From: Fidelibacterota bacterium | Lineage (GTDB): Bacteria > Fidelibacterota > JAANXI01 | Assembly: GCA_021734025.1 (NCBI GenBank) | Contig: JAIPJS010000017.1 | Coordinates: 6,165 to 70,164 of the forward strand | DNA: 64,000 bases | Reading direction: 5' to 3' | Shown here: in pieces, positions 6,243 through 23,119 of the stretch | Position numbering within the stretch: position 1 is the stretch's first letter | Layout of the letters: each line of letters opens with the position of its first letter | The notes under the pieces: model-generated | Told to the model about the DNA's origin: nothing | Databases searched by the model: none | The model's input: the letters and a program-made list of their open reading frames with translations, nothing else | Program-made: the position numbers and the translations under genes

Positions 6243-6629
6243 ATGAAAAGTATCCTGGAACGATCTTGGATTATAGCGGTATTCAGCACTTTTGGCTTCG
6301 TAGGACTGGTTGGCTTTCTGCTACAGAGTATATTTGGGCTCGATTTGAATCTTTACGTACCATTGGCAGCGATGATGTTTGTTAGTGGTTTGTACGGGTT
6401 AATCGGCATCTATATGCTGACGGTGAAAAAAGCCGAACCGGGCAAAGAATGGGGTAAAAATCCCTGGAGTAATTTCTGCTTTGCTGTTGGGCTGTTTGCA
6501 CTGGGGATTCTCTTGCTTGTGCATAATACCATTAGTATGTCCGGTTTCGTAGTCCTCGGACTATTTTCCCTGGTTTTTGTCTTTGGGTTTTTTATCGATG
6601 AAAGTATGCAGGATCAAAGTATAGTCTGA
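6243..6629 (+). CDS. hypothetical integral membrane protein (4 predicted TM helices)
   Basis: GGAGG RBS 6 nt upstream of ATG; strongly hydrophobic segments. Confidence 0.55.
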   Translation: MKSILERSWIIAVFSTFGFVGLVGFLLQSIFGLDLNLYVPLAAMMFVSGLYGLIGIYMLTVKKAEPGKEWGKNPWSNFCFAVGLFALGILLLVHNTISMSGFVVLGLFSLVFVFGFFIDESMQDQSIV

Positions 6630-6800
6630 CAGAATTCGCCATTTATGAGGAATTGAAAAGATTCCTGACATTTGCAATCGTGGTACCTTTAGGATGAGAT
6701 ATCCCAAACAATTGGGTTGGGCGGCGTATCGAATTTCATTATTTTATATATACACTTTGGTGTTCGATTCTCCGAAGTCAGTAAAACAGGAGGATATCCG

Positions 6801-7242
6801 ATGAAAAAAGTGATCCTGCTTAGCAGCACTCTACTATTCCTTACCGCTTGTGGACTCCATTTTGTTAAGGACGGGCCAGTGCACCGTGAAAATCCTGATG
6901 GGAGCGAAGAGAGAAGTACCAGTTTCTCAATTTATTCCAACAAGACCGAAGATACGCTGGAACGCGCCCGCCACCTGGCATCTAAACAGGAATTTCAAAA
7001 AGCCATACATTTATATACATCGGGTGTACGAGGATTCGACACTCAAATCCGAGTACAGGGCCGATGCCCTGTATCATATGGGATCCCTGCACGGAAATTT
7101 TTTCAATGATAACAGGGATCTCGAAAAAGCGCATGAACTTCTTACCCGCCTCGTAAACGATTTTCCACTTTCTGATTTCCGGGATCGGGCGGAAAAACGC
7201 ATTGCGGAAATTGAGCGTCAGATGGCTAACACTGAAGATTAA
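6801..7242 (+). pseudogene. TPR-like lipoprotein (BamD/YbgF-like C-terminus) interrupted by a +1 frameshift near 7005-7022
   Basis: AGGAGG RBS and lipoprotein signal peptide (MKKVILLSSTLLFLTACG) in frame 0; TPR-like C-terminal region (..YRADALYHMGSLH..LVNDFPLSDF..RIAEIE) continues in frame +1; switch lies in duplicated hexamer ATACATTTATATACAT. Confidence 0.5.
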
Positions 7243-7427
7243 CCGATCCTCTCAGTAATCCAACAGATCCGCAATGGAGAAATTGTCTTCGGAACCTGTC
7301 CCGTGACAGGATTGCGACATCTCATCGCCGGAAAACTATCGCAAGATCACATTTCTCTTTAACCTTTCTCCCGTTTCATCGTATCATAAATAAAATTCGC
7401 TTTTCACCGGCTGTACCCTGAAAACCG

Positions 7428-7988
7428 ATGACCACCTCCAAATCAACCTATGAACGCACACTGTTGCACCGTTGCCGAAACGGGAACACCAACGCCTTTT
7501 CGGAGATCGTGAAGCAATACCAATCCTATGCCTATTCTCTCGCCATACGGCTGCTGTGGAATGCGGAAGACGCGGAGGACGCAGTGCAGGAGTGCTTTCT
7601 CCGGATTTGGAAGAATTTCGCCTCCTATGATCCGGAGAGAAAATTTACGACCTGGCTGTATACTATCGTGACCAATATCTGCTATGATATGCTTCGGAGA
7701 CGTCAGCGTGACACAGAGCTTAGAGGGAAGGACAGCGTCGATATTTCCGAGTTACAACACGCTCCCAGAAATTCAGCCAATACCGCTGATACGATAGTGC
7801 AATTGAAATGCCTGGCCAGCGGATTACCGGTACAGCAGCGGCTGGTCTTTATCCTGCGGGACGTGCAGGATCTGTCTGTTTTTGAGACGGCGGAAATTTT
7901 GGCCATCTCGGAGAATGCGGTGAAGAGCAATCTCTATTATGCCCGACGTGCTCTTCGCGAGCGATATCGTCAACTTATGAAACAGTGA
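7428..7988 (+). CDS. ECF-type RNA polymerase sigma-70 factor
   Basis: Sigma-70 region 2 and region 4 like segments (..QECFLRIW.., ..SVFETAEILAISENAVKSNLYYAR..). Confidence 0.9.
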   Translation: MTTSKSTYERTLLHRCRNGNTNAFSEIVKQYQSYAYSLAIRLLWNAEDAEDAVQECFLRIWKNFASYDPERKFTTWLYTIVTNICYDMLRRRQRDTELRGKDSVDISELQHAPRNSANTADTIVQLKCLASGLPVQQRLVFILRDVQDLSVFETAEILAISENAVKSNLYYARRALRERYRQLMKQ

Positions 7989-7996
7989 ACAGACCA

Positions 7997-8722
7997 ATGA
8001 AATGTAACGAAATACAGCAGTACTTGTATCTCTATCGGGACGATGAACTTCATGACGAGCCACGGAAATTACTCCGGGATCATCTTGACTCCTGTCCGAC
8101 ATGTTTGGCTGAATCAGATAACATTTCGGAGATAGCAGAGTTAATTAATCTCTTCAGAGCAAGCGTGCTTACACCGGAAAATCCGGATCATCTCCACTCC
8201 AGGATAATGCACTCCATTCCAAAGAAGAGAGGGCGACCCGTCCGCACTTCGATATTTGATCGACTTCTCAGTCGATTGACCGTTCGAAAGATCCGGATTG
8301 CGTTCGCAGGTACTGTGGTATTTTTCATCGCCATCTTCCTGGCTGAGCAGACGCTCCTTATAAAAAAACTCACGGCGCTGGAGGACCGGATGTCAACGCA
8401 AAGGGAACCGTCTCAGTTGCAAGCGCCGGACTGGTACCGGGCGCTGCAGGCGATGGAACCGGCAAATGTTTCACTGACCGAACTCTCCCTGGAAGACTTG
8501 CTGGGATTATTACCGAAACAGCTGAGAAACGATGTACCAAATCAACTGCCGGCAGAAATAAATAATCGGAGTTTGGCGTCTATAGTAAGCAGAGGCATCT
8601 CTCCTGCCGAACGCCGGCTCCTGGAGCGGGCAGGAATTGAAACCGAACTGTTGCGGAGACGATTTTCCACAGACCAACTCCGCCGCTTCGCGGAACAGGA
8701 GGATATCTCATGGCTGGATTAA
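7997..8722 (+). CDS. zinc-finger anti-sigma factor, single TM helix
   Basis: Directly downstream of and overlapping the sigma gene; N-terminal H-x3-C-x2-C motif (HLDSCPTCL); central TM helix. Supplied ORF begins at GTG 7985; ATG 7997 preferred. Confidence 0.7.
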   Translation: MKCNEIQQYLYLYRDDELHDEPRKLLRDHLDSCPTCLAESDNISEIAELINLFRASVLTPENPDHLHSRIMHSIPKKRGRPVRTSIFDRLLSRLTVRKIRIAFAGTVVFFIAIFLAEQTLLIKKLTALEDRMSTQREPSQLQAPDWYRALQAMEPANVSLTELSLEDLLGLLPKQLRNDVPNQLPAEINNRSLASIVSRGISPAERRLLERAGIETELLRRRFSTDQLRRFAEQEDISWLD

Positions 8723-9708
8723 AAAAGATCAGCGTCATCATAACATTGACGGCAACGCTGCTCGCGTTATCCAATTGCAGGGAAATCACCACCACTACCC
8801 GGATATTATCCGATGGCTCCTGTGAGCGGACTGTTGAAGTATCCAGTGACCCCGAAAGTAGCGTATTTCCGATACCCGGCGACAGCACCTGGACGATAAC
8901 CCGCACTACCGAAGGGAAAGACAGCGTGGATGTTTATGCCGCAACAAAGAAGTTTCCGGCGGTTTCGGCACTTCAGGAGGAGTATCCAATGCAATCAAAT
9001 TCCGGAGTAAATGTACCTGTGACGATTGAGTTACGCTCCGGATTCGGACTATTCTTTCGGTATCTGCGATATGAAGAGATCTATGGCCGGTACAATCCGC
9101 TCTCTCATATTCCGATCGCCGAGTACCTCAGCGAGATTGAGATACAACAATACACTGCCGGGGATGATAGCACGGAAATCGAGGAGCGTGTCGATGAGTG
9201 GCGGGCTCACAATCTCTATGCAGAGATGGAAAATGCGCTAATAGTTGGTGCAAAACAAAAGCAGCTTACGGAAATAAATACGGAAACATTGGCACAATAC
9301 AGGGATACTCTTTTGATTACGGTAATTGAGGAGGCTGACAGCACAGATGACCTCCTGGAGATCTTTTCTGAGTATCTTGGTACTGACCAGGTGTGGGAAC
9401 TCGCTGACACGGTCGATCAAGTATATAAGCGGATTGAAACGGTTATTGAACGGTTGACCGACCTGGCGTTGGACGATTTCACGAACCGGGTGGTGATGCC
9501 CGGATTACTCATGGATACCAATGCCAAATCCCTGGAGGGGAATATGGCCCTCTGGCAGTTTGAGGGCGGAGTCTTCGAGTTCCGCGACAAGGTCATGTGG
9601 GCCGAATCCCGTCTGCTGAATTGGTGGGGGATCGGCATTGTGCTGGGGGCCTTGGTGTTGCTCGGTGTATTACTGTTCATCGCGGTCAGGCGGAAGAGAA
9701 CGGGCTGA
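8710..9708 (+). CDS. hypothetical lipoprotein with C-terminal TM anchor
   Basis: AGGAGG RBS; signal peptide with lipobox-like LSNC; C-terminal hydrophobic helix followed by RRKRTG; overlaps anti-sigma gene end. Confidence 0.6.
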   Translation: MAGLKKISVIITLTATLLALSNCREITTTTRILSDGSCERTVEVSSDPESSVFPIPGDSTWTITRTTEGKDSVDVYAATKKFPAVSALQEEYPMQSNSGVNVPVTIELRSGFGLFFRYLRYEEIYGRYNPLSHIPIAEYLSEIEIQQYTAGDDSTEIEERVDEWRAHNLYAEMENALIVGAKQKQLTEINTETLAQYRDTLLITVIEEADSTDDLLEIFSEYLGTDQVWELADTVDQVYKRIETVIERLTDLALDDFTNRVVMPGLLMDTNAKSLEGNMALWQFEGGVFEFRDKVMWAESRLLNWWGIGIVLGALVLLGVLLFIAVRRKRTG

Positions 9709-21008: not shown

Positions 21009-21635
21009 ATGACATAAGCCGGTGGGAATCTTGAAACGTGCAAAATAAAAAGCGTCGACTTGAATTTTTTTCCACTTTTAACGTCAAGGTTTTGATGTCC
21101 AAGTGTTCCATGCAGGCCCGGACATGCGTTTCAAGATAAAAGTGGAATTAATTGATATAGTTCCAAAACTCCAACATCACTCTTGTTTTTAAAACTATTG
21201 CTATCTTTTAATTGCCCGCTTTTTCTTGATAAAAAACGGGCAGAAAAAATCAAGGAAACTCAGAACTCGCACTCCTATAAATATACAGGCTCTTTTGCAA
21301 CATTGGATATAGTAAATATTAACTCATTCAATTTCTACTGGGGTGCTCAAACAGCTGAGTTTCCGGTAAAAAAACTAGCAATAATTTGCTGTGCAATTTA
21401 TTTTTCGCTCTTTTAATGCCCGAGTATTCCATATACGCATCAAGACAAAAGGGCGGTTACCTGCCGTGTCAACGTTGAAAACACAATCAATACGTTGTTC
21501 ACCCTACATCCAGAAGAAATCTTCGTCTGTAAAGATGGTGGCTATCTATTTGGGCGAATTTTAATAATCCCGACGTCACCCCCTCGGAAAGCTCAGCTCC
21601 GGGAAAAGCCTCCGGTGAGGATATTGCCTAAAACA

Positions 21636-21674
21636 GTCATTCCGAGCGGAACGGAGTGGAGCCGAGGAATCTCG
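21636..21674 (+). repeat. mosaic intergenic repeat R1 (GTCATTCCGAGCG..GGAATCTCG), copy A
   Basis: Near-identical to 34989-35027; related copy at 31264-31312. Confidence 0.6.
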
Positions 21675-21759
21675 CAAATGAATTTCAGGGGTAAAATTGA
21701 TGCGCCCTTTCCTCATCGCAATAATATGTTCGTCGCGGCGAATTGCGAGGCTCTTCTTT

Positions 21760-21788
21760 GGTAGCCTTTGAATTTCATTCAAAGGCGG
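21760..21788 (+). repeat. palindromic repeat R5 (GGTAGCCTTTGAATTTCATTCAAAGGCGGA)
   Basis: Perfect hairpin CCTTTGAAT-TTC-ATTCAAAGG; second copy with 2 mismatches at 39517-39546. Confidence 0.55.
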
Positions 21789-21999
21789 ATTTTACCGGAT
21801 AAAGCCGGAAAATTTGGTTGGCGACTGTGAATTAGAATGACCCTTTCAGGGTCTCGACCCCTGAAAGGGTCGGTAGCAAATAAGGAAACTCAATGCCATT
21901 CAGTCTTTGCGGCCCAGGTGATCCGTTTGTTAAGAGGGAGAACTCGAGAAATCTAGTCTGAACACATCGGGAATGAAGTGAAAAACTAAAAAACAAGAA

Positions 22000-22221
22000 G
22001 TAGAGACGTAGCATTCAGGTTGTGTGAAAACGAAAAATCAAATAAAAAGTGAATGCTGGGCACCGGTTTGTTCTTCCAGTAGAGACGTTCCATGGAACGT
22101 CTCTACAATCAACAATATCAATGGGTTACTGTATATTATTTTGCAGAGAGGATTTTCCGGAATCAAGAGAAAAAAATCTCTTGACAAAAAATTCTCACAC
22201 AGCCTCCGTGGTACGTCTCTA
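22000..22221 (+). repeat. MITE-like structured element, copy A (about 220 bp with long terminal inverted repeats and internal hairpins)
   Basis: Ends TAGAGACGTAGCATTCAGGTTGTGTGAAAA / TTCTCACACAGCCTCCGTGGTACGTCTCTA are inverted repeats; internal perfect hairpin 22079-22106; homologous to 34393-34627. Confidence 0.55.
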
Positions 22222-22237
22222 GTCTACCATTAACTTT

Positions 22238-23119
22238 TCAGTCCTCCCGACACGTCTCCGCCACATCCTCAAATGTAAACAGCCGGGAGTGAATCGCCGG
22301 ATGATCGACGCCAAGCCGGTCGAAGCCATCGCCGCCAACGTACAGCCGGATATCATATTTCTGGCATTGCTCATAGAGATAGTTAATCTCAAACTGGATC
22401 ATATTGATATCCTGGATATATGTGCTGGAAACGTAGAGCCGGTCAATATTAACCTCGCTGAAGATCTTTTCGATGTTGAAGAGCGGGGTAATCTGTCCGC
22501 TGAACAGTACCCGATATCCGTGCTCCTCCAGAATATGATCCACCATCTTGATGGCAATGTCATGCAGCTCCGATGAGAAATTAAGGCAAAAAGCTGTTCC
22601 CTTTTTCTGCGGGGGAATCTTGATCGATCCCTGGAGCCGGATAATACTGTCCCGGATGGTCTGCGACGCAAAGTGCTCCCCGATGACGGATAATTGATCA
22701 TTCTCCCAGAGATGGCCGATCTCGTGCAGTGCTGGCGTGAGAACTTTGTCATAAATCCGGTGCAGCGGATGCTGTCCCAGGTAGAGGCCGTTCAGGATTT
22801 TCTGAATTTTTTCGCGGTTTTTGTCCAGGGCGAGGTCAAGTATTTGCCCAGACAAGTATTCATAGTCGCCTTTAATAATGTGGTAGCTCGTCTCCAGATC
22901 CGATTCGGTTTCGATGGGGAAAAGGTTGGCTTTCTGGATTTTTTCCTCATTGCGCTCAAGAAAGTCCGCCAGATGCTCCGGCAGGAATTTCCGGTGCCCC
23001 CCGGCTGTCCGGATGCACTCCAGCTTCCCGTCATCCGTCCACCGTTTGATGCTGGACACATGCACTCCAAGGATATTGCTCACCTCTTCGCTGGTAAAGT
23101 ATTTCATCTCACTCGACAC
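22238..23119 (-). CDS. MerR/excisionase-type HTH regulator with B12-binding-like C-terminal domain (LitR/CarH-like light-responsive regulator)
   Basis: N-terminal HTH (..EEVSNILGVHVSSIKRWTDDGKLECIRTAGGHRKF..); C-terminal Rossmann-like cobalamin-binding-type region with GEH and VGGDGF motifs; divergent from a carotenoid operon. Confidence 0.7.
   Translation of the reverse strand: MSSEMKYFTSEEVSNILGVHVSSIKRWTDDGKLECIRTAGGHRKFLPEHLADFLERNEEKIQKANLFPIETESDLETSYHIIKGDYEYLSGQILDLALDKNREKIQKILNGLYLGQHPLHRIYDKVLTPALHEIGHLWENDQLSVIGEHFASQTIRDSIIRLQGSIKIPPQKKGTAFCLNFSSELHDIAIKMVDHILEEHGYRVLFSGQITPLFNIEKIFSEVNIDRLYVSSTYIQDINMIQFEINYLYEQCQKYDIRLYVGGDGFDRLGVDHPAIHSRLFTFEDVAETCRED

Follow-up and report, generated by a model that had tools for sequence, protein, structure and literature searches.

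The gene at positions 6801-7242 of the window (the whole 64-kb stretch of DNA analysed here) is likely an ordinary and very recent frameshift pseudogene, or null allele, of a small outer-membrane-type lipoprotein. We propose that a single TPR lipoprotein gene gained one nucleotide within 7017-7023, most simply by a change of GG to GGG. Translation from the ATG at 6801 would then depart from the family frame midway through the second TPR helix, add 28 unrelated residues and stop at 7107, so that the TPR domain could not form and the gene would thereby be inactivated. We infer that the insertion is a real mutation rather than a read artefact and that the truncated 102-aa product is non-functional. 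The first-pass annotation had left three options for this locus: a pseudogene, a sequencing error or a genuine +1 recoding site. The first is favoured here; an error is disfavoured by identical assemblies and three protein records, and recoding by the lack of a slippery site or stimulator and by an orthologue that reads in one frame. The finding is an ordinary one, of a known kind, and carries little weight beyond annotation.

A single gene in two reading frames

All features of the gene lie on the plus strand, and the minus strand at the locus has no ORF of more than 50 aa. A Shine-Dalgarno sequence, AGGAGG, can be read directly at 6788-6793, with a 7-nt spacer to the ATG at 6801. The start codon, signal peptide and L-T-A-C lipobox together occupy 6801-6851, with the TGT codon of Cys17 at 6849-6851, and the translated frame-0 N-terminus is MKKVILLSSTLLFLTAC-GLHF..., in which the signal peptide leads into the lipobox cysteine. 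The good ribosome binding site and lipoprotein signal peptide that had been described in frame 0 are both evident in the sequence.

From the ATG at 6801, frame 0 runs to a TGA at 7107-7109 and encodes 102 aa, while frame +1 is open from 6814 to a TAA at 7240-7242 and reads VYEDSTLKSEYRADALYHMGSLHGNFFNDNRDLEKAHELLTRLVNDFPLSDFRDRAEKRIAEIERQMANTED from about 7024. Codon usage was scored as log-odds with the 29 long ORFs of the 64-kb window as the training set; the score is higher for frame 0 in 6890-7010, and for frame +1 in the rest of the gene from about 6985. The ORF ends and codon usage agree with the earlier placement of the N-terminal half in frame 0 and the remainder in frame +1. The N-terminal part (6801-7022, residues 1-74), delimited by codon usage and family alignment, comprises the signal peptide, a beta-rich linker and the first TPR-like helices. 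The C-terminal part (7024-7242, residues 75-146 and the TAA), delimited by codon usage, conserved residues and AlphaFold2, holds the remaining TPR-like helices. The premature frame-0 TGA falls 28 codons past the junction, and the gene as written encodes a truncated lipoprotein. Frame 0 ends in AAA UUU UUU CAA UGA (7095-7109), with a U6 run two codons before the stop. The frame-corrected protein of 146 aa used below is the two parts joined by dropping one G of 7022-7024.

A HMMER search of 1.84 billion cluster representatives with this frame-corrected query returned 164 proteins at E <= 1e-3. The closest, P0122 (143 aa, 55% identity, E 4.9e-37), matches query residues 11-139 in one stretch, and the search also gave dozens of intact homologues of 140-150 aa that aligned over nearly their full length. 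A 21-sequence alignment (A1, with P0122-P0150 among its members) is gapless across the junction. Cys17 is invariant in all 21 sequences, family identity to the window protein is 27-55% over the whole length, and the mature part of the frame-0 half is 70% identical to P0122. The residues that are invariant or nearly so in the family (A68, A89, L90, N102, D106, A110, P122 and A130) are all present in the window protein. The other 20 aligned relatives all have intact reading frames, and only the window copy is broken by a 1-nt insertion. No patterns could be derived from A1 because its sequences are too diverse. When 5.8 billion proteins were searched by word index with the fused protein, the sole match was P0001 (114 aa), which is the window's own frame +1 ORF, and the profile version of that search added only distant members. 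Likewise, metagenome contig scans with the fused protein and with a 2-sequence alignment (A3) found no relatives, and a single-sequence search of the PDB gave no significant match.

With the alignment as input, AlphaFold2 models the frame-corrected protein at a mean pLDDT of 93 and a pTM of 0.78. The model features a short beta-meander at residues 20-45, followed by helices at residues 49-61, 65-77, 83-97, 107-120 and 127-145. The junction (residues 73-75) falls inside the helix at 65-77, where pLDDT is about 98, and the frame +1 part is modelled at a similar pLDDT of about 98.

Overall, the alignment and the predicted fold indicate that the two reading frames are two halves of one gene and one domain. 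The earlier reading of a single gene split by a +1 frame change is upheld, as intact homologues of 140-150 aa span both halves and align ungapped across the junction. P0122 and its relatives are single proteins, not the two separate genes that had been named as the observation that would speak against a split. Two functional genes at this locus, one for the 102-aa lipoprotein of 6801-7109 and one, overlapping it in frame +1, for a small protein with a start such as ATG 6898 or GTG 7024, are thus very improbable, since the homologues are all single proteins spanning both parts and the predicted TPR helix and domain straddle the junction. NCBI does annotate the frame +1 ORF as a gene and start codons are available in that frame, but the internal starts have no preceding Shine-Dalgarno sequence, the frame +1 product would have no signal peptide, and nothing matches the 42 residues with which it would begin at ATG 6898 (coverage 58%).

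The P0122 locus (L015) provides an orthologue for comparison at the DNA level. There the lipoprotein gene is preceded by the C-terminal end of a protein homologous to the 128-aa membrane protein encoded at 6243-6629 of the window, and with this shared upstream gene the locus is orthologous. This multi-pass membrane protein (L015 3-149) has no family assignment and is syntenic upstream of the lipoprotein gene; the two genes may form a conserved pair.

The extra base and its origin

The alignment of the P0122 locus DNA (Logan ERR6043686) to the window contains one gap, of 1 nt, located at the junction, where the window reads ACATCGGGTGTAC and the orthologue ACTC-CGATGTCTAC. Deletion of any one base in 7017-7024 restores a full-length ORF: dropping a G of the GGG gives ...LYTSVYED..., and dropping 7019 or 7020 gives ...LYTRVYED.... 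The register is set by the motif A68-x6-V-Y in the 21-sequence alignment, with AIHLYTSVYED in the window and AITLYSDVYRD in P0122. From the DNA alignment and the single-base deletion test, the interval that holds one extra base is 7017-7023 (ACATCGG), which faces two codons in the orthologue and the family. Relative to the orthologue, then, the window carries exactly one extra base within 7017-7023, and this base is probably a G of the run at 7022-7024 (GG to GGG).

The first-pass annotation had mapped the switch to a duplicated hexamer, ATACAT, at about 7005-7022 and regarded it as a slippage-prone context. The hexamer is indeed present twice, at 7005 and 7015, and the interval of the extra base overlaps its end, but the proposed slippage does not hold up. 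The gene contains 3 repeats of 6-mers spaced 6-20 nt apart, where shuffled sequences have 1.6 +/- 1.6 and the window as a whole 3.5 per 442 nt, and a 6-nt repeat with 10-nt spacing favours 10-nt indels, not 1-nt indels. Because near-repeats of this kind occur at chance level, the hexamer was dismissed as a feature and the duplication rejected as the cause of the frame change. The same evidence bears on phase variation, in which slipped-strand mispairing would have turned off a contingency gene. The protein is a surface or envelope lipoprotein and its frame breaks at a short run of G, as would suit such a role, but the run is only 3 bases long, no tandem repeats were found in 6780-7260 and the hexamer is duplicated no more often than expected by chance; in known contingency loci the tracts have some 7 units or more. 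We regard phase variation as exceedingly improbable.

It is unlikely, too, that the real gene is intact and that the consensus has a spurious extra base in the GGG run. The window is identical, with no mismatches over the 12.3 kb fetched, to an NCBI MAG contig (JAIPJI010000005.1 of GCA_021734225.1, Candidatus Marinimicrobia bacterium), and the same 12.3 kb is identical in a separately built 78-kb Logan contig (run SRR12088347) made with a different assembler from read sets that are possibly shared. NCBI lists the frame +1 product under three protein accessions (MCF7805383.1, MCF7828610.1 and MCF7880351.1), in each case with the neighbouring gene under an adjacent accession, and it occurs on four contigs of different lengths from samples that are possibly not independent. 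A random assembly error is unlikely because the same frameshifted sequence recurs in the NCBI MAG contig, the Logan assembly and the three protein records. The assembly is not indel-prone either, since about 60 other genes of the window have long uninterrupted ORFs, including some of 600-790 aa, and no other broken gene is evident in the 64 kb. The perfectly kept downstream frame, with all conserved residues present, would fit an error, as would a sole candidate site in a short homopolymer and the chance that the assemblies share read sets; a run of only three identical bases, however, is not known to raise the error rate of accurate short reads. A literature search under the run and assembly accessions found no publications.

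If the insertion is a real mutation, as we favour, the part of the gene behind it bears on its age. The 72 codons after the junction are undegraded, with a mean identity to the family of 0.344 against the family's own mean of 0.345. The intact orthologue fits the family profile less well than this part of the gene, and a relative-rate count against that orthologue gives 22 vs 16 sites (p = 0.42). Because these 72 codons are undamaged and every conserved family residue is kept, the insertion would be very recent on an evolutionary scale, and the allele may be fixed only in the Marinimicrobia population of the window. The lack of decay after the frameshift is also expected under a sequencing error or a bypassed frameshift.

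The case for and against recoding at the junction

A bypass could take the form of a programmed +1 frameshift, in which ribosomes skip a base near 7020-7023, perhaps aided by folded downstream RNA, to make the full-length lipoprotein. The frame after the junction is intact and conserved, and three hairpins (7022-7044, 7053-7074 and 7080-7122) form in the RNA of 7000-7130, which folds with an MFE of -42.2 kcal/mol and a z-score of -4.0, a value that was reached by 3 of 160 other windows of the 64 kb (about 2%). The placement of these hairpins does not resemble that of a stimulator, however. The first begins 0-3 nt from the site, inside the ribosome footprint, whereas known stimulators act at a set distance from the site (the prfB and -1 PRF geometry). 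The orthologue has no comparable structure (z = +0.47), and the downstream RNA was accordingly rejected as a conserved stimulator.

The junction itself offers little for the ribosome to slip on. None of the P-site codons in 7005-7023 (AUA CAU UUA UAU ACA UCG GGU) can re-pair in the +1 frame; the frame-0 junction codons are ordinary in the genome (ACA 10.7, UCG 12.4 and GGU 13.0 per 1000); the nearest frame-0 stop, at 7107, is 28 codons away; and no AGGAGG-like or other SD-like element is found in 6985-7016. The closest orthologue (L015) reads in one frame, and no other close relatives were found in the searches. With no slippery, rare or stop codon and no SD-like element at the junction, and with the orthologue in frame, programmed +1 recoding is unsupported, and we consider it very unlikely.

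The U6 run at 7098-7103, the only U-run, was considered as a shift site (tRNA-Phe moving from UUU to UUC) and rejected. It lies 75 nt downstream of the required site, and a shift there would leave 27 out-of-frame residues in a conserved stretch. Its position near the frame-0 stop is probably coincidental.

A lineage-specific, non-canonical form of +1 recoding, with neither re-pairing nor a stop codon, could be imagined if the hairpin RNA of 7022-7122 paused ribosomes and so allowed some full-length lipoprotein to be made. We judge this more doubtful still, although it would, if true, explain the perfect preservation of the downstream frame. Were the frameshift bypassed in vivo, the locus would represent a bacterial +1 recoding site that lacks canonical signals, and this would be of wider interest. 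We retain the recent pseudogene as the preferred reading.

Genomic neighbourhood and comparison with known systems

The immediate neighbours of the gene are a small membrane protein gene and an ECF sigma gene. Downstream lie the ECF sigma factor (7428-7988), a zf-HC2 anti-sigma factor (7985-8722) and a 332-aa protein (8710-9708), and the first-pass annotation, by placing the lipoprotein gene directly upstream of this module, had implied a functional link. We find none. In the closest sigma relatives, at about 50% identity, the 332-aa protein likewise has a homologue that stays with sigma and anti-sigma (L012, E 2e-47), and in L010 the place upstream of sigma is taken by another such homologue (E 8e-31) instead of a TPR lipoprotein. 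Intact homologues of the TPR lipoprotein, for their part, adjoin unrelated genes: another lipoprotein (L015), an acyl-CoA dehydrogenase (L017), and Ada and Rho (L020). Since sigma relatives have a different upstream gene and the lipoprotein homologues have unrelated neighbours, the adjacency is positional only, and the lipoprotein gene is not to be counted within the neighbouring module. The synteny route through the sigma orthologues of about 50% identity yielded no orthologue of the broken gene and was abandoned. A genome contig scan with the adjacent ECF sigma as query returned only paralogues of about 30% identity in other phyla, the source genome itself not being among the matches.

The module of ECF sigma, zf-HC2 and the 332-aa protein is conserved in relatives (window 7428-9708; L010 3425-4633; L012 1869-3098). 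The 332-aa protein has an N-terminal cysteine in a lipobox-like context, a C-terminal TM helix and no Pfam match, and a second paralogue of it lies upstream of sigma in L010; it is an uncharacterised partner family of the window's ECF group.

The NCBI gene K9N46_06400 (6898-7242, 114 aa) begins at an out-of-frame ATG, with its first 42 residues out of frame, and the true start at 6801 with its lipoprotein signal is unannotated. We propose that this "hypothetical protein" become a frameshifted pseudogene spanning 6801-7242. Elsewhere in the window, a 1.2-kb stretch at 21009-22237 contains no convincing ORF, tRNA or tandem repeat, and relaxing the Rfam threshold to E 0.1 gave no match. A 293-aa regulator-like protein is encoded on the minus strand at 22238-23119, and the stretch lies upstream of its gene.

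Judged from sequence and model, the intact protein would be a small (about 146 aa) envelope TPR lipoprotein, distantly BamD/CpoB-like and a member of neither family. Pfam matches of family members are to TPR_6, TPR_14 and YfiO, all well below the curated cut-offs. The NCBIfam matches are weak, to BamD (TIGR03302) in 21 of 21 members (best E 1.1e-12) and to YbgF (TIGR02795) in 20 of 21. Foldseek against the PDB places BamD, LapB and the YbgF/CpoB TPR domain on top, with E values of 3e-3 to 1e-2. The earlier label of a TPR protein resembling BamD/YbgF therefore stands at the level of fold, as the Foldseek matches indicate, but not at that of family, where the NCBIfam BamD and YbgF scores are below cut-offs.

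Its closest affinity is to an unnamed family of proteins of about 140-150 aa, with which it shares length, a signal peptide, the invariant lipobox cysteine, an S-T-S linker and two to three TPR_6-like repeats. Members of this family, about 145 aa long, combine a predicted beta-meander and a conserved S-T-S motif before the TPR helices, and their genomic contexts vary; neither Pfam nor NCBIfam has a model dedicated to them. As a by-product of this analysis, the widespread family has been delineated, and its confidently predicted fold could seed a family model.

Relative to BamD/YfiO (TIGR03302, PF13525), a lipoprotein of outer membrane protein assembly, the window protein is likewise a lipoprotein with TPR helices and finds 5efr and 3qky as Foldseek matches. 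It scores 33.4 bits against a cut-off of 81.4 in NCBIfam and 19.5 against 25 bits in Pfam, however, and covers only positions 126-169 of the profile. BamD has about 240 aa and 5 TPRs, whereas the window protein has 146 aa, with five helices after residue 49 that amount to about 2.5 repeats. The TPR domain of CpoB/YbgF (TIGR02795; 2xev) is a three-helical-hairpin of the same size and superposes with an rmsd of 1.9 A over 90 columns (TM 0.62, target-normalised), but at 22.9 bits the window protein stays well short of the cut-off of 90.1. CpoB itself resides in the periplasm, begins with a coiled coil and is encoded within the tol-pal operon; the window protein differs in having a lipobox and a beta-rich N-terminal part, and tol-pal genes are not adjacent to its gene.

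Finally, the locus resembles prfB-type +1 frameshifting in that a full-length window protein would need a +1 frame change. It differs in that the junction has no re-pairing codon of the CUU-U type, no in-frame stop and no upstream SD-like stimulator, and in that the offset between the two frames is not conserved in the orthologue.
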